The notes under the pieces are model-generated. The model was not told where the DNA came from, did no database searches, and worked only from the letters and a program-made list of their open reading frames with translations. A stretch of DNA of 63,112 nucleotides, counting the filler. It is 5 parts of 5 records of this genome, joined end to end, with 100 filler letters (N's around TTAATTAATTAA, not from the genome) between each part and the next. Parts side by side here need not be neighbours in the genome. Positions count along the whole stretch, not along the records: positions 41,431 to 49,669 come from DRR723986_5294; 4 more parts are not named here. The stretch is one strand, 5' to 3'. Shown here one piece after another: positions 32,683-54,981 of this stretch (the first letter of the stretch is position 1; every line of letters begins with the position of its first letter). Position numbers and translations under genes: made by a program.

Positions 32683-32690
32683 GAGGCTCT

Positions 32691-34585: not shown

Positions 34586-34594
34586 GAGGTTTCG

Positions 34595-36567: not shown

Positions 36568-36576
36568 GTACTGGGG

Positions 36577-37317: not shown

Positions 37318-37563
37318 GAACGCAAGTGTGTTCGCGAAGTGAATTTTGGTCAATAAATAAACGCTCTAATTCACCCCCGCAAATGCGGGGAGATGTAAGT
37401 AAAAATACGTTGTTTGTAGCTGATACTGGGTATGTGCAGTGCAGCAATTTCATAGACATGTAACGTTATGCCCTTTATGATTAGGTCTGTTCAAATTTGA
37501 ACGCAGTGGCACCTTTTAAGACTACTCATAAAAATCTCCCGCTTGTTGAACGGTGCACAACAC

Positions 37564-37575
37564 GGCGGTAGCGTG
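37564..37575 (+). promoter_or_regulatory. ops element (RfaH/NusG-paralog recruitment site)
   Basis: Exact GGCGGTAGCGTG, 23 nt upstream of the first gene of a polysaccharide operon. Confidence 0.85.
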
Positions 37576-37598
37576 CCAAAAATGCCCATTTTCCACAC

Positions 37599-38480
37599 AT
37601 GTCTAAACTTTTAATCACCGGGGCTACTGGTTTTTTGGGCAGCAGCCTTTGCCATCATTTGATTGCTAGCGGGCATCAATTAGCAGCGCTGGTGCGTCCC
37701 AATTCGAACTTAAAAAAGTTTCAAGGTTTGAATATCCAGCTTATCGAACTTGCTGAGTACCACGAGCTAGCTGCAAAAGTTTCACAATTGAATTTGGATG
37801 GCGTTATTCATACGGCTTGCAGTTACGGGCGCAAAGGCGAAAGTGTGCAGGAAGTTGTTGAGGCCAATTATCTGCTTGGCGTTGCTCTGCTTCAAGGCTG
37901 CCTAAGGGCTGGTAAGCCCGTAGTTTTTTTAAATACAGGCACTGTGTTGCAATCGTCGGTGGGTATCTATGCCATCACCAAAAACCAGTTTAGCGAATTG
38001 GGTATGCAGTTGTGTGCAGGCTCGCAAGCTCCAAATGTGCAGTTTATTGATATTGCGCTACAACATATGTTTGGGCCAGGGGACGACGCTTCAAAATTTA
38101 CAACCCATGTTATTCGCAGTTGTTTGGCCAACGTTAACGACTTGCCACTTACCGAAGGTACGCAGCGGCGAGATTTTATTTACATCGACGATGTAGTGCA
38201 TGGTTACTCAACCTTGCTTGATCAAGCAGGCAGTTTAAACAAGGCAGAAAGAGTGGAGTTGGGTTCTGGCTACGCACCAACCCTGCGCGAATTTGTTGAA
38301 ATGGTTCATCAGCTTAGCAACTCAAAAACAAAACTGGAATTCGGTGCAGTGCCTATGCGGGCTGGCGATACTCCAATTTGTGTGGCCAACACACAGCGTA
38401 TGCAGCAGCTAGGCTGGTCAGCAAGGTATTCGCTTCAACAAGGCATCACAAAAACAATTCAAATGGAAAACAAGGCATGA
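37599..38480 (+). CDS. prt: CDP-3,6-dideoxyhexose 4-reductase (CDP-paratose synthase-like SDR)
   Basis: [42 protein letters not shown]; directly before tyv. Confidence 0.7.
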
Positions 38481-39493
38481 AATTATTGATCACTGGTGGT
38501 TGTGGTTTTCTGGGTAGTAACCTGGCTGCCCATGCAATTGAGCAGGGTATTGACTTGGTGGTATTTGACAACCTCAGCCGCTTCGGTGCAGTAGCCAATT
38601 TACAATGGCTGCAAAGCAAAGGCAGTTTCAAGTTTGTACATGGCGATATTCGCAATTCCAACGACGTCAGCCGAATTGTCAAAGAATTAAAACCCGATGC
38701 CGTTTATCACCTGGCTGGGCAAGTGGCCATGACAACATCCATTGCAAATACTCGTATGGATTTTGAAGTCAATGCACTCGGTTCCTTCAATGTGTTGGAG
38801 GCTGTGCGAGATCATTCTCCCAATGCGTGTGTACTGTATTCCTCCACCAACAAGGTGTATGGCGATCTGGAACAGTTTAATTACGAAGAAACGCCAACTC
38901 GCTATAGCTGTACGAGCAAACCCAATGGCTTTGATGAAACGGTGCCTCTCGATTTTCATTCACCCTATGGTTGTTCCAAAGGTTCAGCAGACCAGTACAT
39001 GCTCGACTTCCATAGAATATTCGGCCTACGCACGGTGGTATTCCGTCATTCATCTATGTACGGTGGGCGTCAGTTTGCAACCGCAGATCAAGGCTGGGTG
39101 GGTTGGTTTTGCGAGCAAGCAGTTCAAACGCAGAGAAGTTCAAATCACAGGTTCACCATTTCTGGCACTGGCAAGCAGGTTCGCGATGTTCTGCACGCTG
39201 AGGACATGATCCGTCTTTACTACGCTGCAACCTCCAAGATCGATTCAGCTGCAGGGCAGGCATTCAACATTGGAGGTGGCATGCCCAATAGTTTGTCGCT
39301 GCTTGAACTGTTCAACATGCTAGAGCAAATCACCGATACAAGAATGAACTTTGATCGGTTGCCTCCTCGTGAAAGCGATCAGCGCGTATTTGTTGCAGAC
39401 CTGACCAAAGCGCAGCAAGTGCTTCAATGGGCGCCGGGCGTGTCAGCGTTTGATGGGGTTTCAAAAATGGTGGACTGGATTTCTTCTCGTTGA
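38477..39493 (+). CDS. tyv: CDP-paratose 2-epimerase (CDP-tyvelose epimerase)
   Basis: [66 protein letters not shown] closely match Salmonella/Yersinia RfbE/Tyv as recalled. Confidence 0.92.
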
Positions 39494-39515
39494 ACAAGCA
39501 AAGAGCGCGAATTTA

Positions 39516-39866
39516 ATGGTTAGCAAACAGCAAGAAAGCAGGGAAGACTTGCATTTCAAAACACTGAAGTTGATCGAGGCCAAGCCAGACATTACTCAGC
39601 GAGAACTCGCCGATCAATTGGGCATTAGTTTGGGTAAAACCAACTATGTATTGAAAGCCCTGAAGGACAAAGGTTTGGTGAAACTGGGTAACTTTAGCCG
39701 CAACCCCAATAAATTGCAGTATGTCCACCTGCTTACGCCTCAAGGCCTGTCTGAAAAAACCCAGCTTACCCTTCGTTTTTTAAAACGCAAGGTTCAGGAA
39801 TACGAACAGCTTAAAGCCGAAATTGACGAGCTTAAACACACGCTGGAGTCTGAGAAAAGTGAGTAA
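39516..39866 (+). CDS. EPS-associated MarR family transcriptional regulator
   Basis: [44 protein letters not shown]. Confidence 0.88.
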
Positions 39867-41037
39867 ACAATACAAAGTTGCTGTGGCTGGTACTGGCTAC
39901 GTGGGTTTAAGCAATGCAATGTTGTTGGCGCAACATCACCACGTTGTGGCACTCGACATTTTGCCCGGCAAGGTTGAAATGCTGAACAACAAAGTAAGCC
40001 CAATTGAAGACAAGGAGATTGAGCTTTTCCTTCGCGAGAAGCCACTTCATTTCAAAGCCACTACTGACAAAGCAGAGGCCTACGCCAATGCAGACTTCGT
40101 CATTATTGCAACACCCACCGATTATGATCCGCAAACGAATTACTTCAACACACAGTCAGTTGAAGCAGTTATTCGCGATGTTATGGCACTCAACCCCACC
40201 GCATTGATGGTCATTAAATCAACTGTTCCGGTGGGCTATACAACCAGGGTTCGCGAACAATTCGGTACAAGTAACCTTATTTTCAGCCCAGAATTTTTGC
40301 GCGAGGGAAAAGCCCTTTACGACAATTTGCACCCCAGCCGAATTGTGGTGGGTGAGCAAAGTGGGCGAGCAAAGATATTTGCCGGCATGCTTCAAGGCGG
40401 AGCCATTAAGCAAGACATTCCAGTGCTGTTTACCGACAGTACCGAGGCCGAGGCAATCAAATTGTTCAGCAATACTTATTTGGCCATGCGCGTGGCTTAC
40501 TTCAACGAGCTCGACACTTACGCTGCTACACATAGGCTAAACACCAAGCAAATTATTCAAGGTGTTTGCCTGGACCCACGTATTGGTAACCACTACAACA
40601 ACCCCAGTTTTGGTTATGGGGGGTATTGTTTGCCAAAAGACACCAAACAATTGTTGGCCAATTATCAGGATGTTCCGCAAACACTGATGAGTGCAATTGT
40701 TAATGCCAACAGCACCCGGAAAGACTTCATTGCGGAAGATATTTTGAAGTTAAAACCCAATGTGGTGGGTATTCACCGATTGGTGATGAAAGCGGGCAGT
40801 GACAATTTCAGATCTAGCAGTGTGCAGGGGGTAATGAAACGCCTTAAAGCCAAGGGAGTAGAAGTAATTGTCTACGAACCCGCTTTAAGTGAGCCTGAGT
40901 TTTTTAGAAGCAGGGTAGTGAATAACCTTCCTGAATTCAAACAACAGGCCAACGTAATTGTTGCCAATCGAATTACAGAAGACATTAGAGATGTCGCATT
41001 CAAGGTGTATACGCGAGATCTTTTTGGCAACGACTAG
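39859..41037 (+). CDS. ugd: UDP-glucose 6-dehydrogenase
   Basis: [44 protein letters not shown] start overlaps upstream gene. Confidence 0.95.
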
Positions 41038-41059
41038 CAACGACTAACCCAGTAGTTCA

Positions 41060-41330
41060 ATGACACAAGAACATCAAATTTTATTGGCCAACGGCCGCAA
41101 ATTTTCCGCCAATGCCGAAACCTCGATTCTAGACAATGCATTGCGACAGGGTGTTGCGCTTGAACACAGCTGTAAAAATGGGCGTTGTGGTGTTTGTAAA
41201 ACCCAGTTGCTCAACGGGCAAACTGAAGTGCTACAGCATGAGGAAAGCTTGCAGGAAGCGGAGAAACAGGCGGGCTTTATACTAACCTGTTGCCGAAAAG
41301 CATTGGCCAATGTTGAAATTGATGCAGAAG
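41060..41330 (+). CDS. 2Fe-2S ferredoxin domain of CDP-6-deoxy-delta3,4-glucoseen reductase (DdhD/AscD/RfbI), truncated
   Basis: HSCKNGRCGVC...ILTCC plant-type 2Fe-2S motif in a dideoxyhexose cluster. Confidence 0.75.
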
Positions 41331-41430
41331 NNNNNNNNNNNNNNNNNNNNNNNNNNNNNNNNNNNNNNNNNNNNTTAATTAATTAANNNNNNNNNNNNNN
41401 NNNNNNNNNNNNNNNNNNNNNNNNNNNNNN
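41331..41430. other. artificial contig spacer
   Basis: N44-TTAATTAATTAA-N44. Confidence 0.98.
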
Positions 41431-41631
41431 GCTGCCGGTCGGGTGGGTGCTTTCATCCTTGAGGTAGATGGAAATCCCTCCGAGGCCGGAGAACACCGGC
41501 TTGACCAGATGCGTGTCCGCAGAGCGCCGCGCATCGCCCCGCAACAGAGCGATGGCGCGCCGGGACCACTCGCGTTCGGGGCAGTCGGGCAGCGGAGAGA
41601 GGTCGCGGCAGTCGCGAGGGTGAAGCGTCAT
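41431..41631 (-). CDS. PLP-dependent cysteine synthase-family protein, Cds1-like L-cysteine desulfhydrase (N-terminal part)
   Basis: W..RAI..L..DARRSADTHL...IYLKDESTHPTGS is the typical N-terminus of this subfamily. Confidence 0.8.
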
Positions 41632-41632
41632 G

Positions 41633-42007
41633 TCACAGCCCGATCACGGCTTCGATTTCCACCAGCGCACCCTTGGGCAGGGCCGAGACCTCATAGCAGG
41701 CGCGGGCGGGGTAGGGGGCCTGAAAGGCCTTGCCGTATTCCTCGTTCAACTCGGCGAAACCCGACAGGTCGGTGAGCAGGATCGTGGTCTTCACGGTGCG
41801 GGACATGTCGGTGCCTGCGGCCTCGGCGATGGCGGCGATGTTCTTCAGGCATTGGCGCATCTGGCCCACCGCCTCCGTCGAGGCGAATTCGCCGGTCGCC
41901 GGGTCGATCGGCAGCTGGCCGGAGACGAAGAGCAGGTCGCCGATGCGCATGGCCTGGCTGTAGGGGCCGATGGCGGCGGGGGCGTTGGGGGTGTCGATCG
42001 GGGTCAT
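41633..42007 (-). CDS. ridA: RidA family deaminase
   Basis: APAAIGPYSQA, SGQLP, YPARAC (Arg), LPKGALVEIEAV. Confidence 0.92.
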   Translation of the reverse strand: MTPIDTPNAPAAIGPYSQAMRIGDLLFVSGQLPIDPATGEFASTEAVGQMRQCLKNIAAIAEAAGTDMSRTVKTTILLTDLSGFAELNEEYGKAFQAPYPARACYEVSALPKGALVEIEAVIGL

Positions 42008-42037
42008 GGTTTGGGTCCTTCGAAGGGTGTTTCGGGG

Positions 42038-42601
42038 TCAGCTGGAATGGCCAAGCGGGTGCATGAGCCGGTTGGCCCAGCCGAAGATGGCGATGGACTG
42101 AATCAGGTCCTGAATCTCGGCGTCGTCCATGCCCGCCGCGCGCAGGGCGTCGACATGGCCCCGGTCGGCGCGCGGCGGGGTGACTGTCAGGGCCTCGGCA
42201 AAGTCGAGGATCGCCGCGTCCCGCGCGCTCAGCGCGTCGCGCCGCCCGGCATGAAGCGCCGAGGTGGCCGTGGGACCGGCCAGCTTGGCGTGCTGGCGCG
42301 CGTGGACGTTGGCGCAATACTGGCAGCCGTTGACCAGCGAGGCGCCAAGCGCGCCCAGCTCGCGGTCCGGCCGGGGCAGGCCGCCCTCGGCGTACATGAT
42401 GGCGTTGAACAGCTCGGTTCGTGCCACATAGCTGTCGGGGTCATGCACCAGCGTGCGCACATAGGCAGAGACCTTCTTGGCCGAGGGCGTGACCTTCATG
42501 GCGTCCAACTGGCGCGGGGTGGCCTCTGCAACCTCGACCGGCGGCAGATAGGGGGTCCAGGTCAGGGGTTTGACCCGGATGCGGGGGATGTCGTCAGGCA
42601 T
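42038..42601 (-). CDS. AhpD/CMD family alkylhydroperoxidase-related protein (CxxC)
   Basis: LTWTPYLPPV, ARTELFNAIMY, RELGAL..SLVNGCQYCANVH, AIFGWANRL. Confidence 0.85.
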   Translation of the reverse strand: MPDDIPRIRVKPLTWTPYLPPVEVAEATPRQLDAMKVTPSAKKVSAYVRTLVHDPDSYVARTELFNAIMYAEGGLPRPDRELGALGASLVNGCQYCANVHARQHAKLAGPTATSALHAGRRDALSARDAAILDFAEALTVTPPRADRGHVDALRAAGMDDAEIQDLIQSIAIFGWANRLMHPLGHSS

Positions 42602-43076
42602 CGGCGGCCTCCTTCAAAAGCGAGAGCCCGTGCACGATGCGCGTCTCGTAGCAGACCTGCGCCAGCAGTTCGGACAGGGCGATGATCTGCGGCACGGTGA
42701 ACCCGGCGGCCAGAAGCGCCTGAAGATCGGCCTCGGAGGCGCGGGCGGGCGTGGCGGCGATCATGTCGGTATGGCGCGCAAGGGCGGCCAGCGCCGCGTC
42801 CTGCGGCGTGCCGCCCCGGGCGAGGTCGTGCAGATCGGGCGCCTCTGGGGCCGGGTAGCCCGCCAGCAGCGCGGCATTGCCGGCAAAGGCGGCCGCGCGA
42901 TGGGCCACGGCCAGACGCAGGTCCGGAGAGAGGCCGAGGTCGTCCTCGGGGTGCAGGACCGCCGCGCGGGCGCGTTCCGCCCCGCTGGCGAACTCCGGGC
43001 GGCCTGCCCGGAGCTGCGAGAGGGCGTCCCCGGCGGTCAGGCCGAGGGCGGTGTCGATGGCGTCTTGGGTGGTCAT
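42594..43076 (-). CDS. CMD-domain protein lacking CxxC (Avi_7170/YciW N-half-like)
   Basis: True start MTTQDAID (43076, overlaps dctM stop); LARHTDMIAATP..LLAAGFTVPQIIALSELLAQVCYETRIVHGL. Confidence 0.75.
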   Translation of the reverse strand: MTTQDAIDTALGLTAGDALSQLRAGRPEFASGAERARAAVLHPEDDLGLSPDLRLAVAHRAAAFAGNAALLAGYPAPEAPDLHDLARGGTPQDAALAALARHTDMIAATPARASEADLQALLAAGFTVPQIIALSELLAQVCYETRIVHGLSLLKEAADA

Positions 43077-44368
43077 CGGTTTACAGGCCCCATGATGAGA
43101 TCCGGCAACCAGAGCGTGATGATCGGGAAGGCCGTGATGAGGATGAGCGCGACGAAGGGCGGGATCAGCAGCGGCAGGATCGCCACCGAAAGCCGCTCGA
43201 ACTTCACGCCGGAGACGGCGGACATCAGGTAGAGCCCGACGCCCAAGGGTGGCGTGGCGATGCCGATCAGCAGGGCCAGCGTGATGATCATGCCGAACTG
43301 CACACGGTCGATGCCGAAGGCGTCCGCCGCGGGCAGCAGCAGGGGCAGGAGGATGATCTTGGCCGGCGTCGCTTCCATGAAGCAGCCGATGACGATCAGC
43401 AGCACCACCACGAAGATCAGGAAGACCGTGCGGCTGTCGATCGTATCGAGGAAGCCGGTGGCGAAGGCCTGCGGCACCTGCTCGAAGGCGAAGAGCCAGC
43501 CCATGGTCTGCGACGCGCCGATGATCATCATGATGAGCGCCGAGAGCAGCGCGCTTTCCTTCAGCGCGGTCCAGAGCATCTGGAGCGTCAGCACGCGGTA
43601 GGCGAGGCCGATGAGCAGGGTGTAGACGCAGGCGATCACGCCCGCCTCCGTCGCGGTGGCAAAGCCGAAAACGATGGCGCCGAGGATGATGGCCGGGGCG
43701 ATCAGGGCCGGGACGCCTTCGAGGACCGCGCGCTTGACCGAGGCCATGGAGCGGGGGGCTTCGCGCGGCATCTCCTGAAAGACGCACATGACGCGGATGT
43801 AGGCGATGAAGGAGATCGCCACCAGCAGCCCCGGCACGATCCCGGCAAGGAACAGGCGCGCGACCGATTCATTGGCCAGCCAGGCATAGACGATCAGGCT
43901 GATCGATGGCGGCACGATGGGTCCGACGAGCGAGGTGGCGACGGTCAGCGCGGCGGCGAATTCATGCGAATAGCCGCGTTCGCGCATGGCGCGCACCTCG
44001 ATCTGGCCCAGCCCCGCGATATCGGCGGTGGCCGCACCCGAGACGCCCGCGAAGATCAGCGAGGCGATGACGTTCACATAGGCCAGCCCGGCGCGCACGC
44101 TGCCGATCAGGGCGAGGGCGAAGTTGAAGATCTTGTCGGTCATGCCGACCGCGTTCATCAGGCTTCCGGCAAGGATGAAGAACGGGATGGCGAGCAGGGC
44201 CGATTTGCTGGCGCCGCCGATGATCTGCTGGGGAAAGACGAGGGCGAAGTCCATCAGCCCGGCCCAGTAGAGGCCGGCGACCGTACCGGCGCCGATGGCG
44301 ATGGTCACGGGGACGCCCAGCATCATCAGCAGCATGAAGGCGCCGATTACCACGAATCCGAGGGTCAT
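43073..44368 (-). CDS. TRAP transporter large permease DctM
   Basis: LLAIPFFILAG, GVSGAATAD, GPIVPPSI, TATEAG, TPPLG. Confidence 0.95.
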   Translation of the reverse strand: MTLGFVVIGAFMLLMMLGVPVTIAIGAGTVAGLYWAGLMDFALVFPQQIIGGASKSALLAIPFFILAGSLMNAVGMTDKIFNFALALIGSVRAGLAYVNVIASLIFAGVSGAATADIAGLGQIEVRAMRERGYSHEFAAALTVATSLVGPIVPPSISLIVYAWLANESVARLFLAGIVPGLLVAISFIAYIRVMCVFQEMPREAPRSMASVKRAVLEGVPALIAPAIILGAIVFGFATATEAGVIACVYTLLIGLAYRVLTLQMLWTALKESALLSALIMMIIGASQTMGWLFAFEQVPQAFATGFLDTIDSRTVFLIFVVVLLIVIGCFMEATPAKIILLPLLLPAADAFGIDRVQFGMIITLALLIGIATPPLGVGLYLMSAVSGVKFERLSVAILPLLIPPFVALILITAFPIITLWLPDLIMGPVNR

Positions 44369-44904
44369 TTTGTCTGTCCAGCCTCCAGCAGGTCTCCCGG
44401 CGGTGTGCGCGGATAGGGATTGATCTCGCCGGTCAGCACATGCAGCGCGTGCAGGCAGAAATGCACGACGAGGCAGGCGGCGGAGAGGAAGAGCGGCAGG
44501 CTGTTGACGTAGATCGGCAGGGCGATGGTCTCCATCTGGCCGGTCTGCATCGCCACCAGTTCCTGCGCGGGCGAGAGGATCATGTACATGAAGAGCAGCC
44601 CGATCAGGTCGGCGAAGACCGCCAGCGCCCGGCGGACGGGCAGGGGCATGCGCGCGGCGACCAGATCGACCACCACGTCGCGGTTTTCGCGCATGTAGAC
44701 GTAGACGCCGAGGCAGGTCATCCAGACGAACATCAGCATCGTCCAGTGGTAGACCCAGTCGAAGGCATCGCCGAGGAACGAGCGGCTGAGGATGTTGGCC
44801 ATGTTCATGGCCAGCATCACGAGCAGGAGAAGGGCGATCGCGGCCTTGAACAGGGCCGCGATCGCGTCCAGCCCCGCCCCGATGGGGGAGAGGAGCCGGG
44901 TCAT
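44365..44904 (-). CDS. TRAP transporter small permease DctQ
   Basis: Start MTRLLSP at 44904; 4 TM; NILSRS, WTMLMFVWMTCLG. Confidence 0.88.
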   Translation of the reverse strand: MTRLLSPIGAGLDAIAALFKAAIALLLLVMLAMNMANILSRSFLGDAFDWVYHWTMLMFVWMTCLGVYVYMRENRDVVVDLVAARMPLPVRRALAVFADLIGLLFMYMILSPAQELVAMQTGQMETIALPIYVNSLPLFLSAACLVVHFCLHALHVLTGEINPYPRTPPGDLLEAGQTK

Positions 44905-45908
44905 CACTGCGCGCTTTTCCGGGCGGCGTCCACGGCCTCCATCAGGCCGGCGGGCAGCTCGCCCGCGGCTTCGCGGTCGGCGTAGAAGGCGGCCGTCTTC
45001 TCGATGATGGCCGAGGTGTCGAAGCTGTCGGAATAGGTCACGCCGTCCAGCGCCTTGATCCGTTCGACGGTCTCGTCCGCGCCGGAGAACACCGCGTTCC
45101 ACGCGAAGGCGGCGGCATCGGCATGGGCCTTGGTCAGGGCTTCCTTGTTCTCGTCCGAGAGCGCTTGGAAAGCGGCGTCGTTCATCATGAAGGCGATGGC
45201 CTGCGGGTATTCGTCGGTCCGCACGATATGCGGCGCCACCTCGTAGAAGCGGGTGGATTCGATCAGTTCCAGCGGCGAGGTCACCGCATCCACGATGTTG
45301 CGGTTCATCGCGTCGTAGACTTCGCCCCAGGGCAGGACGACGACTTCGGCGCCGAGGTTTTCCCAGACGTCGATCACCAGCTGGCCGTCGAACTGGCGGA
45401 CCTTGCGGCTGGCGATGTCCTCGGGCGCGGTGATCGGCTCCACACTCAGGAGGGTGCGGAAGGAGCCGCGCGGAAAGGCCGGGGCGTCGCCGAGGATCGA
45501 GATGCCAGAGGCCTCTGTCACGTCGGCCAGCCAGCCCTGCACCATGTCGCCGCGGATGAAGGTGGCCCAATGCTCGTAGTCGTCGAAGAGGAACGGCGCC
45601 GAGGCGTAGCGGATGTCATCCTCCCACCGCGCGAGGAAGGTCATGGCCGAGGGCGCAAGCTGGATCACGCCGGCGCTGAGCTGTTCGACCACGGCATCCA
45701 TCTGGCCGATCTGCGAGTTCGGGAAGATCCGGATGGTCAGGTCGCCGCCGGAGTATTCGGCGACTTTCTCGGCGAGGACCTCGTAGGCTTGCCCCTCGAT
45801 GCTGTCGGGGGCGACCATGGAGCTGAGCCGCCATGTTTCGGCACTGGCGGGGAGGGCGGCGGTGGTCGCGAGGGCCACGGCGGCAGCAAGGCGGGGGAAG
45901 TGGCGCAT
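44904..45908 (-). CDS. TRAP transporter substrate-binding protein DctP
   Basis: Signal peptide; IRIFPNSQIG, APFLFDD, SRKVRQ, LPWGEVYDAM. Confidence 0.92.
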   Translation of the reverse strand: MRHFPRLAAAVALATTAALPASAETWRLSSMVAPDSIEGQAYEVLAEKVAEYSGGDLTIRIFPNSQIGQMDAVVEQLSAGVIQLAPSAMTFLARWEDDIRYASAPFLFDDYEHWATFIRGDMVQGWLADVTEASGISILGDAPAFPRGSFRTLLSVEPITAPEDIASRKVRQFDGQLVIDVWENLGAEVVVLPWGEVYDAMNRNIVDAVTSPLELIESTRFYEVAPHIVRTDEYPQAIAFMMNDAAFQALSDENKEALTKAHADAAAFAWNAVFSGADETVERIKALDGVTYSDSFDTSAIIEKTAAFYADREAAGELPAGLMEAVDAARKSAQ

Positions 45909-45983
45909 ATCAGGTCTCCTGTTGGAATTTGTTCGTTTTGGGGGCTTGCGATGATCTACTTAATGCATAATGATGAGGGTATC

Positions 45984-46973
45984 ATGTCAATAGAAAATAG
46001 TAAAAAGTTCGATCTCAAAGTGCTGGAAGCCTTTTTGGCAGCCATGTCCTGCGGGTCGATGACCAAGGCCGCGGCCCATCTGGGCGTCGGTCAGCCCGCG
46101 GTGACGCGCATGATCAAGGAGTTGGAGGTCGCCGTCGGCTTTCCCCTGTTTCATCGCAACGGACCGCGCATCTCTCCCACCGATCGCGGGCTGCGGTTCC
46201 ACGAAGAGGTGCAGCGCGTCGTGGCCGGGCTGCGCCAGATCGGCCAGCGCGCCGAGGCGATCCGGACCGAACGCGTCGCCTCCATCGACATCGCCGCGAC
46301 GCCCACCATGGCGGCGGGGCTGACCGGCCCGGCGTTGAAGGCGCTGGCCGAGGATCTGCCGCATCAGGTCAACGTCCAGACGATGAACGCGGAGCATGTG
46401 ATCCGGGCGCTGCGCAGCCGCACCGCCGATTTCGGCATCGCCGCCAACCCGATCGACCACGCCGGGATGGTCCGGCACGTGGCCTGCGAATCGCGGCTGG
46501 TGGGCGTGGTGGCCGAAAGCTCGCCGCTGGCCGGGTCGAAGGAGCCGCTGCCGATGTCGATCTTCGCCGAAGAGCGGCTGATCACCGTGGGCAATGCCTT
46601 CCGGATCCGCCACACCATCGACCAGGTGCTGCAGGGGCTTCGGATCGCCCCACCGTCGGAATTCGCCACCAATACCTCGCTCAACGCGGTCATGGCGGCG
46701 CGCGCGGGGCTTGGCGTGGCGATCGTCGACCCGGTCACCGCCTATGGCGTTCCGGTCGAGGGCGTCAGGATCGTCCCGCTGGACACGCCGATGCCCTACG
46801 TCTGGGAACTGCTCAGCGACGCCGACCGCGCGCTTTCGCGCCATCTGGGGGCCTTCGTCGACGCCTTCCGCACGGCCTGTCTGGCGACGGTGCCCGATTG
46901 CGTCCTGCTGGAGGGCGCGGGCGATGCGGACCCCACATCCATCCACCAATCCCTGCCCGGAGATGCTTCATGA
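45984..46973 (+). CDS. LysR family transcriptional regulator
   Basis: FDLKVLEAF..GSMTKAAAHLGVGQPAVTRMIKELE..GFPLFHR; ORF-track 5' extension is antisense to dctP. Confidence 0.93.
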   Translation: MSIENSKKFDLKVLEAFLAAMSCGSMTKAAAHLGVGQPAVTRMIKELEVAVGFPLFHRNGPRISPTDRGLRFHEEVQRVVAGLRQIGQRAEAIRTERVASIDIAATPTMAAGLTGPALKALAEDLPHQVNVQTMNAEHVIRALRSRTADFGIAANPIDHAGMVRHVACESRLVGVVAESSPLAGSKEPLPMSIFAEERLITVGNAFRIRHTIDQVLQGLRIAPPSEFATNTSLNAVMAARAGLGVAIVDPVTAYGVPVEGVRIVPLDTPMPYVWELLSDADRALSRHLGAFVDAFRTACLATVPDCVLLEGAGDADPTSIHQSLPGDAS

Positions 46974-48400
46974 CAGAGCCTGCAAGCCTCGCGGAACTGG
47001 AGGCCGAGTTCGCCCGGCAACGCCAGCTTCTCAACCTGCCGCCGAAGCCGTGGATGCCGGTCACGACCGGCCCCGGGGGCGAGGCCGTGCTGGATGTCGC
47101 CATCGTCGGCGCCGGGCTTTGCGGTCTGGTGGCCAATGCGGCGCTAGAGATGGAAGGCATCACCAACGTGCGCCTGCTGGACCGCGCGCCCGCCGGGCAG
47201 GAAGGGCCGTGGATCACCTTCGCCCGCATGAAGACCCTGCGCACCATCAAGGAAGCCGCTGGCCCGGCGCTCGGCATCCCGGCGCTGACCTTCCGCGCCT
47301 GGTTCGAGGCGCAATGGGGCCGGGAGGCATGGGACGAGATGACGCTCGCGCCGCGGACCATGTGGATGGATTACCTGAACTGGTACCGCAAGATGACGCG
47401 GCCCGATGTGCTGAATGACTGCGACGTGTCCGAGATCCTGCCCGAGGGTGCGCTGTTCCGCCTGCGCACCAGCGCCGGGGACATCCGCGCGCGCCGCGTG
47501 GTCCTCGCCATGGGGCTGGATGCGCTTGGCGCGCCCAAGCTGCCGCCCGTCGCGCAGGGTTTGCCGAAAGGTACCGTTTACCACTCCGCCGATGTCTTCG
47601 ACGTCGCCAGCCTGAAGGGCAAGCGCGTGATCGTGGTGGGCGCGGGCGCCTCGGCCATGGACAACGCCGCCGCCGCGCTGGAGGCGGGCTGCGCGCGTCT
47701 CGACCTGCTGATCCGCCGTCCGGCGCTGCCGGCCATCGACAAGTTCACCGGCACCGGCTCTCGCGGGATGACCGCGGGCTTCGTGGCGCTGGACGATGCG
47801 CAGAAATGGGCGCTGATGGACACGGGCGGCCGGTTTCCCGTGCCGCCCCCGGCGCATTCCGTCGCGCGCGTCGCGCAGCACGACAACGCCCACCTGCATC
47901 TGGGCGCGCCGATAAAGGCCATGTCGCACGGGCCGGAGGGGCTTGCGGTCGACACCCCGCAGGGCCGTCTGCAGGCGGATGTGGCGATCTTCGCCACCGG
48001 CTTCGGCATCTCGATGCAGGACCGCCCCGAACTGGCGGAACTGGCGCCGCATTGGCGCACATGGGGCGACGTGGTGGGCCCCGAGAAGGCCGCGCAGAAC
48101 CGCGAACTGGCCGCGCATCCGCATCTCAACCCGGATTTCACCTTCGCCGAACGCGAGCCCGGCAGCTGCCCGGCGCTGGCGCGGCTGTGCTGTTTCGCCT
48201 ACGCGGCGGTGCCCAGCCACGGCAAGGTCACATCCGGCATTCCCTCGGCCTCGGAGGGCGCGCGGCGGCTGGCGGGGGGGCTGGTCCGCTCCTTCTTCGC
48301 CGAGGACGCGGCCTACCACCTCGACCGCTTCGAGACCTACGACACCCCGGATTTCTCCCCCGACATCTGGCCCGCGACGCAACTCAGCCTTTCGGCCTGA
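46970..48400 (+). CDS. class B flavin monooxygenase, HpyO-like FAD/NAD(P)-dependent oxidoreductase
   Basis: DVAIVGAGLCG, EGPWITFARMKTLRT, VIVVGAGASAMDNA, IFATGF. Confidence 0.85.
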   Translation: MTEPASLAELEAEFARQRQLLNLPPKPWMPVTTGPGGEAVLDVAIVGAGLCGLVANAALEMEGITNVRLLDRAPAGQEGPWITFARMKTLRTIKEAAGPALGIPALTFRAWFEAQWGREAWDEMTLAPRTMWMDYLNWYRKMTRPDVLNDCDVSEILPEGALFRLRTSAGDIRARRVVLAMGLDALGAPKLPPVAQGLPKGTVYHSADVFDVASLKGKRVIVVGAGASAMDNAAAALEAGCARLDLLIRRPALPAIDKFTGTGSRGMTAGFVALDDAQKWALMDTGGRFPVPPPAHSVARVAQHDNAHLHLGAPIKAMSHGPEGLAVDTPQGRLQADVAIFATGFGISMQDRPELAELAPHWRTWGDVVGPEKAAQNRELAAHPHLNPDFTFAEREPGSCPALARLCCFAYAAVPSHGKVTSGIPSASEGARRLAGGLVRSFFAEDAAYHLDRFETYDTPDFSPDIWPATQLSLSA

Positions 48401-48426
48401 GACCCCTTCCCAACAAGGCCCTGCCC

Positions 48427-49416
48427 ATGACCTCCACCGATCTTCACGCCCGTTCCATCGTCATCGACGCGCTGCAATGCTCCGACTTCAACCGCGAACT
48501 GCTGCTGGATGCGCAGCAGGGCGGCATCAGCGCGATCAACGCCTCTTCCGTCCTGTGGGAGAACTTTCGCGGCGGCATGGACTATGTCTCCATGTGGCGC
48601 GAGAAGCTGGCGGAAAACGCCGATATCGCCATGCCCATCCGCACCACCGAGGACATCCGCCGCGCCAAGGCAGAGGGCAAGGTGGGCATCATCATGGGCT
48701 GGCAGAACACCTCGCCCATCGAGGACCGGCTGGACTATTTCGCGCTGTTCAAGGGGCTGGGCGTCAACATCATGCAGTTGACCTACAACACCCAGAACTT
48801 CTTCGGCGCGGGCTATCTGGAGGCGCGGGACAGCGGGCTGACCGGCTTCGGCCGCGAGGCGGTGGACGCCATGAATGAGGCCGGCATCCTGATCGACCTG
48901 AGCCATGTGGGCATCCAGACCGCGCTGGACACCATCGACTACTCCGCCAAGCCGGTGGCGATCACCCATTGCCTGCCAAGCGCGCTGTCGGATGTGCCGC
49001 GCAACAAGCCGGACGCGTTGTTCGAGGCCTGCGCCGAAAAGGGTGGCGTGATCGGCACCTCGCTGTTCGCGCCGGGGCTGGCCAGGGGCAATGACGCGAC
49101 CGTCGCCGACGTCATCGACGCGCTGGAGCACACGCTTAATCTGGTGGGCGAGGATCACGTCGCCATCGGCACCGACTTCAACCACAACCGCCCGCGCCCC
49201 GGGCCGTGGCTGCTCTGGGCCAACAAGGACAAGGGCACGGGGCGGACGCTGGCGGACTTCGGCTCTGCCAAGATCTCCAAGCCGGAGGGCATCCGCCACA
49301 GCCGCGACTTCGGCAACCTCACCGCCGAGATGCAGCGCCGCGGTTGGAGCGACGTGCGGATCGGCAAGATCCTTGGCGGCAACTGGCTGCGGCTGTTCGA
49401 CCAGACCTGGGGCTGA
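48427..49416 (+). CDS. membrane dipeptidase (M19) family, PA5396-like subgroup
   Basis: MQLTYNTQN, DSGLTGFGRE, IDLSHVG, ITHC, PRNK, AIGTDF, LGGNWLR. Confidence 0.88.
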   Translation: MTSTDLHARSIVIDALQCSDFNRELLLDAQQGGISAINASSVLWENFRGGMDYVSMWREKLAENADIAMPIRTTEDIRRAKAEGKVGIIMGWQNTSPIEDRLDYFALFKGLGVNIMQLTYNTQNFFGAGYLEARDSGLTGFGREAVDAMNEAGILIDLSHVGIQTALDTIDYSAKPVAITHCLPSALSDVPRNKPDALFEACAEKGGVIGTSLFAPGLARGNDATVADVIDALEHTLNLVGEDHVAIGTDFNHNRPRPGPWLLWANKDKGTGRTLADFGSAKISKPEGIRHSRDFGNLTAEMQRRGWSDVRIGKILGGNWLRLFDQTWG

Positions 49417-49619
49417 GCGCCGGCCCCCATACCCCCGCAGCCGCACTCCTTGGCGGCGCGGGGGTTGCGCCGTCACATCGGTGCCGCGACACGCTCCCCC
49501 CGCCGTGCGGGCAAATACTCCCCCGCTCGGCCTTGCAAGCGCCGAGGGCCACGGTCCGCGCAACGGCCGGACTCGCCCCACCCGACAAGGCACCCGCCCA
49601 CCCGTCTCCTTCCCGCCCA

Positions 49620-49669
49620 CCCCTCCTTCTTCGGTCCGAAAAATACCTCGGGGTTCGGGGCAGAGCCCC
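49620..49669. repeat. Rhodobacteraceae-type intergenic REP/MITE-like element at contig end
   Basis: cttcttcggtccgaaaaatacctcggggttcggggcagagcccc resembles roseobacter repeats as recalled; contig breaks inside it. Confidence 0.5.
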
Positions 49670-49769
49670 NNNNNNNNNNNNNNNNNNNNNNNNNNNNNNN
49701 NNNNNNNNNNNNNTTAATTAATTAANNNNNNNNNNNNNNNNNNNNNNNNNNNNNNNNNNNNNNNNNNNN
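49670..49769. other. artificial contig spacer
   Basis: N44-TTAATTAATTAA-N44. Confidence 0.98.
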
Positions 49770-49820
49770 CTTCACCTTCTCAGGCCTCTGAGCAGCCGAC
49801 GATCCCGGTAGCACACCAAT

Positions 49821-49860
49821 AAAAACGCCGGCGTCTGTTGCCAGGACGCCGGCGTTTTTT
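49821..49860. terminator. bidirectional intrinsic terminator
   Basis: aaaaacgccggcgtc-tgttgccag-gacgccggcgtttttt. Confidence 0.88.
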
Positions 49861-49874
49861 GCTTCCCCGGAAGA

Positions 49875-51521
49875 TTAGTCTTTCAACTGATCCCGAATCA
49901 GTTTTTTGTTGATCTTGCCGACGCTGGTTTTGGGAATGTCTTCCACAAAACGCATCTGCTCGGGAATCGCCCATTTATTGATGTCGCCGCTGTCGACAAA
50001 CTGTTGCAGGTGCTGCTTGATATCCTGCTTAGAGATGGATTCTCCGGGCTTCAGGGTGATCAGGGCGTAGGGACGTTCCCCCCATTTCTCATCGGGCACA
50101 CCTACCACCGCAGCCCCGGCAACGGCAGGGTGCTGGCTGATCATGTTCTCCAGGTCGAGCGACGACAGCCATTCGCCTCCGGTCTTGATCACATCCTTGA
50201 TGCGGTCTTTGATGGTCAGCGTGTTGTCCGGCTCCATGGAGGCGACATCACCGGTGTGTAACCAGCCGCCTTCCCACAGTTCCTCGCCTTTGTCCGGTTG
50301 TTTGAAGTAACTCTGGGTCAACCAGGGGGCGCGAGCGACCACTTCACCCTTGGCTTCGCCATCATGGGCTACGGGGTTGCCGTCAGGATCGACAATTTCC
50401 AGTTCCACCATGGGCACGGCTTTACCGGTCTTCACCCGGATTGCGGTTTGCTGCTCCAGGGGCAGTTCAAGATCCGCCGGGGAGAGGTGCGTGGTGCTCA
50501 GCAGCGGGCAGGTTTCGGACATGCCGTAGCCGGTGAACATCTTGATGCCCAGTTTCGCCCCCGCATCGCACAGGCCTTTGGTCAGGGCGCTGCCACCGAT
50601 GAGCACATGCCAGTTGCTCAGGTCTGCGGTCTTGATGGACTCGGTGGCCATCATCATCTGCATGATGGTGGGCACGCAGTGGGAGAAACTGACTTTGTGC
50701 TCCTTGAGCAGATCCACCAGCAACTCGGGTTCATAGCGACCGGGATAGACCTGCTTTATTCCCATCATGGTGGCCGCGTAGGGCACGCCCCAGGCGTGAA
50801 CGTGGAACATGGGCGTGACCGGCATATACACCGACGATGAACGCAACAGCGGCATTTCGTCGAAATGGGAGATGCTGCCGGCCATGGAAAGCGTATGCAG
50901 TACCAGCTGGCGGTGGCTGAAATACACGCCTTTCGGGTTACCGGTGGTGCCGGTGGTGTAGAAAGTGGTGGCGACGCTGTTCTCGTCGAAATCGGGGAAG
51001 TCGAAGTGGTCGCTGGCCCCCGCGAGCAGGGCTTCGTACTCGCCGTGGGTGTCGAAAGAGGCGTTGCCCGGCTTGTCGCTGTCGGTTACCTGAATCCAGG
51101 TTTTGACGGTTTTGATCTCGTCTTTCACGCCCTCGATGATGGGCAGGAAGTCATCGTGCACCAGTACCGCGTCGTCTTCGGCGTGGTTCATGGTGTAAAC
51201 GATCTGCTCCGGCGACAGGCGCACGTTGACCGTGTGCAGTATGGCGCCAATCATCGGAATCGCAAAGAAACACTCCAGGTACCGTGGGGTATCCCAATCC
51301 ATCACAGCCACGGTATCGCCGGGTTTGATACCGGCATCTGTCAGGGCATTGGCAAGTCGATGGATGCGTTCGACAAGGTCCTTGTAGGTGTACTTGCTGC
51401 GATCGGCGTAAACGATTTCCTGGTCCGGGTTGTAGCGGGGGCCGGACATCAGCAACCGCTTGATCAGGAGCTGGTACTGGTGGGCATTGTCAGCCGGTTT
51501 GAGAATTCGGGGTTGAGCCAT
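49875..51521 (-). CDS. medium/long-chain fatty acid-CoA ligase (AlkK/DmdB-like)
   Basis: YTTGTTGNPKG, PMFHVHAWG, GYGMSET, WLHTGD, IPKTSVGK. Confidence 0.93.
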   Translation of the reverse strand: MAQPRILKPADNAHQYQLLIKRLLMSGPRYNPDQEIVYADRSKYTYKDLVERIHRLANALTDAGIKPGDTVAVMDWDTPRYLECFFAIPMIGAILHTVNVRLSPEQIVYTMNHAEDDAVLVHDDFLPIIEGVKDEIKTVKTWIQVTDSDKPGNASFDTHGEYEALLAGASDHFDFPDFDENSVATTFYTTGTTGNPKGVYFSHRQLVLHTLSMAGSISHFDEMPLLRSSSVYMPVTPMFHVHAWGVPYAATMMGIKQVYPGRYEPELLVDLLKEHKVSFSHCVPTIMQMMMATESIKTADLSNWHVLIGGSALTKGLCDAGAKLGIKMFTGYGMSETCPLLSTTHLSPADLELPLEQQTAIRVKTGKAVPMVELEIVDPDGNPVAHDGEAKGEVVARAPWLTQSYFKQPDKGEELWEGGWLHTGDVASMEPDNTLTIKDRIKDVIKTGGEWLSSLDLENMISQHPAVAGAAVVGVPDEKWGERPYALITLKPGESISKQDIKQHLQQFVDSGDINKWAIPEQMRFVEDIPKTSVGKINKKLIRDQLKD

Positions 51522-51584
51522 GTTGTTGTCCTCTTTCTCTGCTTATGTTTGTTGTCACGGTAAGAAAGACGGGCTGAGTGGGGC

Positions 51585-51866
51585 TTATCCGTAGGTACAG
51601 AGATAAGCAGTATCGGCATCCGTTTTTGCTTTGAAGCTTGCTTGCCCCGCTACCTCAAAGCTCTCGCCGGCGCCGAAGGTTTGCCAGTCTTGCTGGCCTG
51701 GCAGCAGCACGGTCAGTTCACCGCTGACGACCGTCATGGTTTCTTTTTCTGAGGTGCCGAATTCGTATTCTCCGGCACTGATAACACCGATTGTGGCAGG
51801 CAGTGTGCTGGACTGGAAAGCCACTGATTTTACCTTGCCATCGAAGTATTCATTGACTGTCAGCAT
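51585..51866 (-). CDS. ppnP: pyrimidine/purine nucleoside phosphorylase
   Basis: MLTVNEYFDGKVKSVAF..GEYEFGT..ETMTVVSG..AYLCTY. Confidence 0.9.
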   Translation of the reverse strand: MLTVNEYFDGKVKSVAFQSSTLPATIGVISAGEYEFGTSEKETMTVVSGELTVLLPGQQDWQTFGAGESFEVAGQASFKAKTDADTAYLCTYG

Positions 51867-51932
51867 GTCTGGTATTCCTTGAAATGGTTTGCAGCCTACT
51901 ATACTGGAAATTCCTGTGCTGCCAATCACAAA

Positions 51933-52343
51933 CTATTGGTTTGAGGTACCTTTTCCAGTTCGGGTTGGCTGCCCGTGCTTTAGCTCCTCGAGCCCGCTAT
52001 TGAGTTTGTGGGTAACCGGGTCATATCGTTCCTGCAGCTCATCCTTGATGGTGCCGGCCCAGAGTTTGGTGCCGGTGAAATAACCGGCCCGGCCTATGAC
52101 ATGAGCGGCGATCGGAGCTGTCAGAAAAATGAAGATAACAATGGCAACCGCCCGCGCGGCCACGGTACTGTCCCCGAAATAGAACGCCACGCCACCCATG
52201 GTCATCATGGCGCCCAGGGCACCGGCTTTGGTGGTGGCGTGCATGCGGGTGGGGAGGTCGGGCAACCTCAGAACGCCGATGGCGGCCAGTACCATGAAAG
52301 CAGCGCCCACCAGGAGCAGGACCGATACCAGTATTTCAATCAT
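51933..52343 (-). CDS. mrpG: Mrp antiporter subunit G (group 1)
   Basis: GVLRLPDLPTRMHATTKAG, LTAPIAAH. Confidence 0.92.
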   Translation of the reverse strand: MIEILVSVLLLVGAAFMVLAAIGVLRLPDLPTRMHATTKAGALGAMMTMGGVAFYFGDSTVAARAVAIVIFIFLTAPIAAHVIGRAGYFTGTKLWAGTIKDELQERYDPVTHKLNSGLEELKHGQPTRTGKGTSNQ

Positions 52344-52608
52344 TCTTTACGCCTCCCCGCTCGACGAATCTGGCGAAGCCGATGGCTGCCAGAAAGGCAG
52401 TCAGAGCGATAACGATGGCAACATCCAGAAAACTGGCCACGCCGGTGTCAATCGCGTGCACTCCCACATAGCCGACCACGATGGAGGCGATCAGCTCCAG
52501 TGCGACCACCCGGTCCGGCAGGGATGGCCCCCGGGTGAGCCGAATGAAGGCGAAGAGCAACGCCAGTGACAGCATGAGATAGACAATATTGATCACCACA
52601 TTCAGCAT
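52336..52608 (-). CDS. mrpF: Mrp antiporter subunit F (group 1)
   Basis: RLTRGPSLPDRVVALE; 3 TM. Confidence 0.92.
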   Translation of the reverse strand: MLNVVINIVYLMLSLALLFAFIRLTRGPSLPDRVVALELIASIVVGYVGVHAIDTGVASFLDVAIVIALTAFLAAIGFARFVERGGVKND

Positions 52609-52618
52609 GACTGGCCTC

Positions 52619-53092
52619 CTAGCGCGTCACCTTCAGGATTCGGCGTTCGAGTTCTCTCAGGTCGCTTCTGAGCTGCTCTTCGTCGTGAAGAAACATGGCG
52701 TGGATAAACAGCACCTTCCGATCGTCAGAGACATCCAGGCTCAGTGTCCCGGGTGTGAGAGAAATGACACTGCTGACAAACAGAATTTCCATGTCGGTCT
52801 CAGCCCGGAGCGGAAACGCGATCACCCCCGGCTTCATATGCCAGACGGGCGTTGCGATGTCATAGGCGACCCGCAGATTCGACTTCACCAGTTCTTTCAG
52901 GAAATACACCAGGAAAGCGGCGAGACGGGGAATCCGGCGGGAATACCCTTTCAACACCGGCACCTGTTTCTGCAGCACCATGAGGGCGACGTAGCCAAAG
53001 ATAAAACCTGCCAGCAAGTTCATGGCCGTGATGCTGCCCGTGAGGGTTACCCAGGCCAGAGCCAGCAGTAAATTCCAGAACAGGCCGATCAT
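52619..53092 (-). CDS. mrpE: Mrp antiporter subunit E (group 1)
   Basis: SNLRVA, ISLTPGTL, LFIH. Confidence 0.92.
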   Translation of the reverse strand: MIGLFWNLLLALAWVTLTGSITAMNLLAGFIFGYVALMVLQKQVPVLKGYSRRIPRLAAFLVYFLKELVKSNLRVAYDIATPVWHMKPGVIAFPLRAETDMEILFVSSVISLTPGTLSLDVSDDRKVLFIHAMFLHDEEQLRSDLRELERRILKVTR

Positions 53093-54603: not shown

Positions 54604-54947
54604 GTGTCGGTATCCTTCATCTTGTCCAGATCGTCGGTGCCCACCACCTCATACGCCTTGCGGATCAGAACCACAGCGAAGGCCAGAACGCTGAACGCGA
54701 TCACAATAGCGGTAAGGATGAGAGCTTGAGGCAATGGATCCGCTACTGCTCCCGCTACCTGCTTTGCGCCGTCAGCGATGAGTGGCGGAGCGCCTCGGGT
54801 TAAACCCGAAACCACGAAAATCAGCAGGTTTGCCGCATTGCTCAGAATGATCAGGCCAATAACGATTTTCACGATGGAGCGCCTGAGCATCATGTAGATA
54901 CTGGCCGCGAACAGGGCGCCAACCACCAGTGCCATCAGGCTCCCCAT
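54600..54947 (-). CDS. mrpC: Mrp antiporter subunit C (group 1)
   Basis: [24 protein letters not shown] before ATG 54947. Confidence 0.92.
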
Positions 54948-54981
54948 TGCAAGGCTCCCCGTTCCAAAAAGTGTGTTCGAC

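Follow-up and report, generated by a model that had tools for sequence, protein, structure and literature searches.

A divergent flavin-monooxygenase island of alphaproteobacteria, tentatively read as a cysteine-yielding organosulfur pathway

We analyzed a stretch of DNA of 63,112 nucleotides (the window), which is made up of five pieces joined by artificial linkers, and describe here the gene island on its fourth piece (positions 41431-49669). The island consists of two divergent operons. The minus strand encodes a TRAP transporter, two CMD-domain proteins (CMD1, CMD2), the deaminase RidA and a truncated Cds1-like enzyme (gene order dctP-dctQ-dctM-CMD1-CMD2(CQYC)-ridA-cds1'), and the plus strand encodes a LysR-type regulator, a flavin monooxygenase (FMO) and an M19-like amidohydrolase (lysR-FMO-M19-like). 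All ten genes were recovered by open reading frame (ORF) and family profile scans, in line with the gene content that the initial annotation of this DNA had described. The best reading of this gene set is a cysteine-yielding organosulfur pathway on a LysR-controlled mobile catabolic or salvage island of Roseobacter/Stappiaceae-type alphaproteobacteria. We favor this reading tentatively, with a confidence somewhat short of even. The strongest evidence for its sulfur/cysteine part is that one cysteine-degrading enzyme is replaced by another, non-homologous one beside the island.

Conservation of the island and its genomic link to cysteine degradation

When representative genomes were scanned with the FMO, 28 loci were obtained, and a plasmid search yielded 236 records, of which eight were examined. 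Every locus was scored by tblastn with a reference protein panel, and loci with an FMO at least 68% identical were classified as TRAP type (14 loci including the window). Here, we found that dctPQM // lysR-FMO-M19-like is present in all 14 TRAP-type loci, with lysR matched only partly in L007, and that CMD1-CMD2 is present in 12 (missing from L007 and L031). The gene order is shared with the 13 other loci at 55-93% protein identity and thus, the arrangement is beyond chance. The initial annotation had made its proposal dependent on co-occurrence of these genes in other genomes, and such co-occurrence was seen for the core in each TRAP-type locus and for the CMD pair in all but two. An M81 (MlrC-like) peptidase gene follows the M19-like gene in two TRAP-type loci (L009, L032).

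A cysteine-degrading pyridoxal phosphate (PLP) enzyme is encoded next door in nine of the 14 TRAP-type loci. Five loci (the window, L002, L005, L006, L032) carry ridA and a Cds1-like gene. H2S, pyruvate and ammonia are the products that Cds1 forms from cysteine (PMC8389258). The Cds1-like orthologues of L002 and L005 scored 570.8 and 570.6 bits, respectively, on NF052478, the cutoff of which is 600. Four further loci (L004, L009, L010, L031) carry a SufS-like class-V PLP enzyme, which involves the conserved PLP lysine (SPHKF) and the cysteine of an RGGCACAGPY motif. Its gene was found at three positions, convergent to CMD2 (L004), inside the operon (L009) and convergent to the M19-like gene (L010, L031). 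An AsnC-type regulator gene lies beside the class-V gene in L010, L031 and the Rhizobium etli locus L034. Cds1 is single-copy in the genomes G002 and G004 and is located at the cluster in both, and the sole class-V copy of genome G003 is also found there.

The R. etli p42e locus (L034) extends this context. There, the class-V gene is followed by a gene for a metallo-beta-lactamase (MBL)-fold protein (535 bits, sulfur-dioxygenase domain of Blh) and then by TauE/SafE, and these class-V, persulfide dioxygenase and TauE genes lie directly beside CMD2-CMD1 // lysR-FMO-ABC. TauE also adjoins the Sinorhizobium version, and a gene for a DsbA-like thiol-oxidoreductase fold directly follows the FMO gene in seven loci. 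Taken together, the nine abutting loci and the persulfide dioxygenase and TauE genes of R. etli provide independent context for the cysteine link that had been drawn from the window. The inclusion of RidA and Cds1 in the system held for the window and four other loci, but these proteins are accessory (five of 14 loci) rather than core. A comparable PLP enzyme beside ridA (571 bits in L002 and L005) recalls the 2-aminoacrylate paradigm of Mycobacterium tuberculosis Cds1 (Rv3684) and RidA. In contrast to Rv3684, the island enzyme stays below the 600-bit equivalog cutoff, comprises 67 residues in the window and is an accessory constituent.

CMD2 was also detected in 19 of 23 more distant loci (FMO identity 42-57%), the remaining four being L022, L024, L028 and L033. 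Nine loci of Rhizobiaceae and related Hyphomicrobiales follow the order Octopine_DH // regulator - PotD-like ABC - FMO - [DsbA-like] - CMD1 - CMD2 - [MATE], in which the bracketed genes are optional. In six Roseomonas loci, FMO-CMD1-CMD2 adjoins TctC, whereas in R. etli and Pantoea an ABC system for polar amino acids goes with the FMO and the CMD pair, and in two Burkholderiaceae loci (L025, L026) the FMO gene is followed by a gene for a fused CMD1-CMD2 protein. The expectation that CMD pairs elsewhere keep company with ABC transporters was borne out, since the more distant loci carry ABC or TctC systems. In a random alphaproteobacterial sample, an FMO homologue (E at most 1e-60) was present in 19 of 401 genomes.

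The FMO and M19-like genes also recur without the CMD pair in Agrobacterium tumefaciens pAt1D1108a (L033), where a carboxylesterase gene, a DsbA-like gene and an ABC system whose binding protein is PhnS/PotD-like accompany them, and in L074, where they stand with a TRAP system. Judging by these two loci, the FMO, as hub gene of the module, can be joined by the hydrolase and by the CMD pair separately from each other. Directly next to the island, a second FMO, a paralogue of 44-45% identity that has a LysR gene of its own, is found at L002:881-3281 and L010:2527-4889, and the L002 copy neighbors an ABC permease gene. This arrangement suggests a sister pathway that shares the CMD, RidA and Cds1 genes.

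Insertion sequence (IS)/transposase genes flank the island in Roseibium algae (L001:3657-4759 and 713-1378) and in a Paracoccaceae metagenome-assembled genome (MAG; L008:4024-4356 and 13304-16758), and Salipiger, Thioclava and Palleronia carry the island on plasmids. These IS-flanked or plasmid-borne copies characterize the island as a mobile accessory trait. Its marine carriers found here belong to the Roseobacter group, Stappiaceae and Martelella, and further carriers are rhizobia, Agrobacterium (pAt plasmids) and Pantoea. Cultured strains with the island include Labrenzia sp. OB1, Yoonia maritima DSM 101533, Martelella limonii NBRC 109441 and Palleronia sp. LCG004. Metal-transport genes are located near some versions (HupE/UreJ, L002:12554-13252; CDF, L004:14143-14892 and L034:1140-2519), and these neighbors recall a Mesorhizobium nickel island (PMC5315480).

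Proteins of the island and the proposed pathway

The FMO carries two invariant dinucleotide-binding (Rossmann) motifs (G47/G49/G52 and G224/G226/A227) and an ATGF motif (T343-G344-F345). Its structure was modeled with a predicted local distance difference test (pLDDT) score of 87.8, and all Foldseek matches listed for the model belong to the N-hydroxylating kind of class B monooxygenase (an NbtG-like enzyme, DesB, SidA, PvdA, KtzI and DfoA; template modeling (TM) score 0.64-0.67, 15-19% identity). The two motifs and the class B fold indicate that the protein is a true NAD(P)H/FAD oxygenase. The predicted fold does not specify the atom that is oxidized. A YpdA/TrxR-like role, in which the FMO would only use NAD(P)H to reduce the disulfide of CMD2, was also considered and rejected, since the listed fold matches are class B monooxygenases without exception. 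Databases name the members of this clade generically ('NAD(P)/FAD-dependent oxidoreductase') or automatically ('CzcO', 'urate hydroxylase'), and NCBI and Atlas give generic names only. The N-hydroxylating enzymes share the two Rossmann motifs and the ATG motif with the island FMO; in contrast to these biosynthetic (siderophore) enzymes, it is encoded in an uptake/catabolic operon that lacks siderophore genes.

In CMD2 the redox motif CQYCANVH, which is of the CxxCxxxH type, was invariant in 25 of 25 sequences, whereas CMD1 shows no conserved cysteine among 23 sequences. Both proteins scored below the cutoffs of the TIGR04029/TIGR04030 pair (Avi_7170/Avi_7169; CMD1, 61.5 vs. 100.75 bits; CMD2, 142.1 vs. 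233.15 bits). The fused 388-aa protein that is encoded beside the FMO in L025 and L026 matches both models and aligns with Escherichia coli YciW over both halves (E 5e-17). CMD2 alone matches the C-terminal half of YciW (E 9e-6), but CMD1 alone did not reach significance in this comparison (E 0.24). The notion that the pair represents the two halves of YciW is thus supported via the fused form and via CMD2, although only as distant homology and not for CMD1 alone. By comparison with the fused YciW-type proteins, CMD1 corresponds to their N-terminal half, and these fused forms argue for the association of CMD1 and CMD2. Both E. coli YciW, which has been linked to cysteine tolerance (PMC10821248), and the CMD pair show a two-AhpD/CMD-domain architecture. 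Unlike the single polypeptide YciW, the island pair is split into two genes with an 8-nt overlap, its identity to YciW is 21-25%, and YciW has CFATC in the aligned stretch where CMD2 has CQYC. For E. coli yciW, which encodes a putative peroxidase, the source reports a CysB-binding motif that is located upstream of this gene and a more cysteine-sensitive disruptant (PMC10821248). In the K-12 region examined, no FMO gene is adjacent to yciW.

The M19-like protein matches PDB entry 2i5g ('amidohydrolase', 325 aa) over its full length with 300 bits. The N-terminal HxD motif, which is also lost in 2i5g, is replaced by ALQCSD and is absent from 12 of 12 orthologues; in the same 12, GAEGG is replaced by GWQNT, so that the bridging glutamate becomes glutamine, while the DLSH, tHC and tDF motifs are kept. 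Thus, three of the five canonical ligands of the binuclear zinc site that defines M19 dipeptidases are lost (ligand numbering as in human DPEP1), and the protein is atypical, as the initial annotation had stated. All three components of the TRAP transporter (P, Q and M) scored above their family cutoffs. The closest solved relatives of DctP, the ectoine-binding proteins 2vpn and 3gyy, reached only about 90 bits. In the alignment 'kvRq' of DctP is opposed to 'kiRt' of these proteins, and in this family the arginine binds the carboxylate of the ligand.

On the basis of these data the cysteine-yielding pathway would proceed as follows, with the LysR regulator controlling both divergent operons. 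The TRAP transporter would import an amino-acid- or peptide-like compound, the carboxylate of which is indicated by the conserved DctP arginine, and the atypical M19-like amidohydrolase may open an amide bond. The FMO, whose fold points to an oxygenase, would then oxygenate a heteroatom, with the sulfur of an S-substituted cysteine moiety as the most likely target. Next, the split YciW-like pair might act as thiol reductase of the oxidized sulfur product, e.g., a sulfenic acid, and release L-cysteine. Finally, the Cds1-like desulfhydrase would convert cysteine to H2S, pyruvate and ammonia, and RidA would remove 2-aminoacrylate. Elsewhere, a SufS-like desulfurase would take the place of Cds1, in one case together with a persulfide dioxygenase and a sulfite exporter. 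The gene families, the CxxCxxxH motif, the class B fold, the DctP arginine and the gene associations behind this scheme are observed, whereas its substrate, the sequence of its steps and the atom that is oxidized are inferred, as are the activity of the hydrolase and what the CMD pair does. Compared with the interpretation given in the initial annotation, co-occurrence of the genes, likeness to YciW, pairing with ABC or TctC systems, the atypical M19 protein and the cysteine context were retained, whereas Cds1 and RidA as core constituents and the assignment to the host were not.

A broader version of this pathway appears rather doubtful to us, namely that a widespread, often plasmid- or IS-borne module of FMO and YciW-type pair, with optional metal-poor M19-like and DsbA-like proteins, recovers cysteine from oxidizable cysteine adducts. 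Candidate adducts are Cys-Gly or N-acyl S-conjugates, bis-amino acids of the thioether type, e.g., lanthionine, cystathionine or S-aminoethylcysteine, and aldehyde adducts of the thiazolidine-4-carboxylate type.

The logic of the island resembles the S-alkyl-cysteine salvage of Bacillus, which involves acetylation, sulfoxidation by a flavin monooxygenase, C-S cleavage to a sulfenic acid, reduction to the thiol and deacetylation (PMC10863075). As in the CmoO/CmoJ salvage of B. subtilis and the related YxeK route for S-(2-succino)cysteine, an amidohydrolase step would free cysteine (PMC10863075). However, the two systems share no protein family. CmoJ is a homologue of YxeK and DszA, whereas the island FMO is a single-component class B FAD/NADPH enzyme with an N-hydroxylating monooxygenase (NMO)-like fold. 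The candidate reductase of the island is an AhpD-like pair, its hydrolase is M19-like and its uptake system is TRAP instead of ABC. In family profile scans no N-acetyltransferase gene was seen in the island, and the FMO matched class B families only. We therefore regard the likeness to the Bacillus CmoO/CmoJ/Sna salvage as an analogy and not as membership, and rate the island as an FMO-based organosulfur/cysteine salvage that is built from different enzyme families than those known. The statement that no characterized pathway combines these genes agrees with our literature search, which returned no description and did not cover subscription journals and supplements.

Evidence against the favored reading and alternative explanations

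Several observations weigh against a cysteine-yielding organosulfur pathway. Within the available DNA, five of the 14 TRAP-type loci show no cysteine-degrading enzyme; among these, L001 and L008 have IS genes next door and L003 is a short contig. The CMD pair is dispensable, as L007 and L031 lack it, and among 20 loci around FMO homologues of the random alphaproteobacterial sample (35-46% identity) one carried the CMD pair and one the combination of M19 and TRAP. With three of five zinc ligands gone, amide hydrolysis by the M19-like protein is not assured. Its closest solved relative, 2i5g, is presumably Pseudomonas aeruginosa PA5396, the first gene of the dgc operon, and this dimethylglycine context is not sulfur metabolism, unlike the role proposed for the island. 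The PA5396 gene of 978 bp and the composition of the dgc operon, which serves dimethylglycine catabolism, are given in PMC13492115. The nearest solved folds of the FMO are ornithine, lysine and diamine N-hydroxylases and not S-oxygenases. In the Comamonadaceae locus L022, FMO-DsbA-like-M19-like adjoins GbcA-, SoxB- and GbdR-like genes, a setting that suggests N-methyl-amine and not sulfur metabolism, and the rhizobial versions carry a gene of the opine-dehydrogenase family and a MATE exporter gene. Finally, this gene set is also listed, next to a CDF transporter, for an island of Mesorhizobium linked to nickel adaptation, with one shared P-value (PMC5315480).

A part of these observations would be accommodated if the FMO were an N-oxygenase and the island degraded a non-sulfur secondary or tertiary amine, an opine-like imino acid, or a betaine-type or cyclic compatible solute, the cysteine-related neighbors being unrelated to it. 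The top fold matches, all of which are N-hydroxylases, the Octopine_DH-family gene and the PotD/PotF-like binding proteins of the rhizobial versions, the neighbors of L022 and the distant relation of DctP to the ectoine binders 2vpn and 3gyy speak for this scenario. It leaves unexplained why two unrelated types of cysteine-degrading enzymes, single-copy in their genomes, abut nine of 14 loci, and it accounts neither for the persulfide dioxygenase-TauE and DsbA-like neighbors nor for the invariant redox motif CxxCxxxH. We consider such an N-oxygenase pathway unlikely. A different order of the sulfur chemistry was also weighed, in which the FMO forms the sulfoxide of an S-substituted cysteine and the PLP enzyme acts as an alliinase/EgtE-like sulfoxide beta-lyase. 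2-Aminoacrylate would then pass to RidA, the CMD pair would reduce the released sulfenic acid (R-SOH) to a thiol, and cysteine would never be set free. This order draws on the position of RidA immediately beside the PLP enzyme and on the weak scores (32-34 bits) that the class-V enzymes reach with the EgtE model for C-S lyases. That sulfenic acids are substrates of CxxC chemistry of the AhpD type also counts for it. In contrast, the Cds1 model gives 571 bits with the enzymes of L002 and L005, near its 600-bit cutoff, the class-V enzymes retain the active-site cysteine of the desulfurase type, and the succession of class-V enzyme and persulfide dioxygenase in R. etli fits free cysteine as substrate. 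A sulfoxide lyase is in our opinion quite improbable.

A non-catabolic function was considered as well, in which the FMO, the CMD pair and the DsbA-like protein act together as a module for redox stress (peroxide, disulfide) or metal homeostasis (nickel/cobalt tolerance, opine-type metallophore). CMD2 is a member of the AhpD/alkylhydroperoxidase superfamily, genes for a CDF transporter and a metal-sensing repressor are found near the R. etli locus, and the rhizobial versions terminate in a MATE exporter. Moreover, the Mesorhizobium nickel island has, under near-consecutive gene numbers, an opine dehydrogenase, a 'flavoprotein involved in K+ transport' and a peroxidase-related enzyme together with a CDF transporter and an ABC system for polar amino acids; however, its genes all share a single association P-value, which points to linkage and not to function (PMC5315480). 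In its marine version the island has dedicated uptake, hydrolases and a LysR gene placed in the divergent layout that is classic for catabolic operons. Metal genes are not conserved among the 14 TRAP-type loci, where HupE/UreJ (L002) and CDF (L004) are single cases. Thus, a stress or metal module has little probability. The automatic label 'FAD-dependent urate hydroxylase', which a single source attaches to a 93%-identical protein and to some homologues, would make the FMO an HpyO-type enzyme and the island a part of purine catabolism. None of the annotated neighborhoods contains a uricase-pathway or purine gene, DctP keeps the carboxylate-binding arginine whereas urate has no carboxylate, and the generic names in NCBI and Atlas do not repeat the label. 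A role in urate hydroxylation is therefore hardly credible.

Layout, origin and significance of the island contig

The coordinates of the island genes and of the linkers are summarized in Table 1. Several overlapping start and stop codons had been described, and we counted five such junctions of 1-8 nt: CMD1/CMD2 (8 nt), dctM/CMD1, dctQ/dctM and lysR/FMO (4 nt each) and dctP/dctQ (1 nt). The ridA and cds1 genes are separated by 1 nt. The cds1 gene is represented by a fragment of 67 codons because the contig end cuts it, and this fragment is 85% identical to the N-terminus of the 373-aa protein of L002. The regulator combines the HTH_1 and LysR_substrate domains and is divergent from its target operon across 75 bp. 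An invariant ATGTCAA supports the lysR start at 45984. The palindrome of the intergenic region (ATnATC...ATAATGCATnAT) is kept in six of six aligned orthologous regions and is a candidate LysR site, judged by its sequence.

Table 1. Island genes, their control region and the artificial linkers of the window
Feature	Position	Strand	Characteristics
Artificial contig linkers	16248-16347, 25066-25165, 41331-41430, 49670-49769		N44-TTAATTAATTAA-N44, six-frame-stop
cds1-like N-terminal fragment	41431-41631	-	67 aa; 42 bits on first 51 positions of NF052478 Cds1
ridA, enamine/imine deaminase	41633-42007	-	PF01042 130 bits; TIGR00004 157.5 bits (cutoff 106.25)
CMD2, AhpD-like 'peroxidase-related enzyme'	42038-42601	-	PF02627; TIGR01926 161 bits (cutoff 81.8); motif NGCQYCANVHA
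CMD1, cysteine-less CMD-domain partner (no CxxC)	42594-43076	-	no Pfam match; TIGR04029 61.5 bits (cutoff 100.75)
dctM, TRAP large permease	43073-44368	-	PF06808 340 bits; TIGR00786 370 bits (cutoff 268)
dctQ, TRAP small permease	44365-44904	-	PF04290 61 bits
dctP, TRAP solute-binding protein	44904-45908	-	PF03480 169 bits
Divergent promoter/operator region	45909-45983		75 bp, AT-rich partial palindrome
lysR, LysR-type regulator	45984-46973	+	HTH_1 and LysR_substrate domains
FMO, class B FAD/NAD(P)H monooxygenase, FMO/NMO type	46970-48400	+	Pyr_redox_3, Lys_Orn_oxgnase
M19-like amidohydrolase, 2i5g subgroup	48427-49416	+	PF01244 252 bits, aligned only from profile position 39
Non-coding contig tail	49417-49669		

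A script scan for spacers resolved the window into the pieces 1-16247, 16348-25065, 25166-41330, 41431-49669 and 49770-63112. The island occupies the fourth piece, which is one whole contig of 8,239 bp bounded by the linkers 41331-41430 (left) and 49670-49769 (right). Its guanine plus cytosine (GC) content is 0.678, and the other four pieces have values of 0.553, 0.565, 0.508 and 0.575, in this order. Because the pieces are joined by artificial linkers, adjacency across the N runs, i.e., outside 41431-49669, is no true genomic context. An acyl-CoA ligase encoded on the right-hand piece (49875-51521, minus strand) shares 99-100% identity with proteins that bear the name Marinobacter nauticus or M. 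hydrocarbonoclasticus. On the left-hand piece, where one protein was searched (27864-28982), the relatives reached at most 88% identity. Proteins of Roseibium, Labrenzia, Maritimibacter, Yoonia, Pacificibacter and a Paracoccaceae MAG share 83-86% identity with the island FMO, which is 93% identical to a JGI protein, and no Marinobacter name appeared among its best 120 listed relatives. An exact look-up of five proteins of the window retrieved none of them from the collection searched, and the best-matching sequencing run contained only 0.15 of the words sampled. These relatives and the GC content of a contig that stands between linkers make it doubtful that the cluster is part of the surrounding genome, as the initial annotation had taken it. 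The island contig is probably foreign to the surrounding Marinobacter-like assembly and, according to its protein relatives, likely derives from Roseobacter/Stappiaceae-type alphaproteobacteria. A contaminant or mis-binned contig is clearly likelier than a recent acquisition, but a genuine transfer may apply, since the island is found on plasmids and beside IS genes in other organisms.

The cluster is also carried by L009 (locus GC 65%), a record titled 'MAG: Marinobacter sp.'. The best match of the M. nauticus-type ligase in this genome (G001) was 27% identical, and it did not exceed 52% in any of the 151 genomes of the family sample. The organism label of this MAG looks doubtful. With ligase matches this poor, the family sample cannot speak for Marinobacter, and the TRAP-type FMO that was found in one of its 151 genomes was not used as evidence about this genus. 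The end of the left-hand contig (37500-41330) has a low GC content (0.46-0.48). By eye, we read an ORF of 404 aa (39823-41037) as UDP-glucose-dehydrogenase type and found a CxxxxCxxC ferredoxin-like motif in a second ORF (41060-41330) that is cut at the contig end; on these readings the stretch resembles an island for surface polysaccharides.

Since the window is a pseudomolecule of contigs put together with linkers, adjacency across its N runs should not be mistaken for biology. As the island contig is probably foreign and truncated, this window is a poor place to study the island. If the proposed pathway is true, the island would represent a new enzyme set for the recycling of organic sulfur. 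It also proposes a function that can be put to the test for the FMO clade, the YciW/TIGR04029-04030 pair and the zinc-ligand-poor M19-like proteins, all of which are orphan families. Should the broader module for cysteine recovery prove true, it would be an undescribed enzymatic route and would provide the first biochemical function for the YciW family and for the 'dipeptidases' of the 2i5g/PA5396 type.

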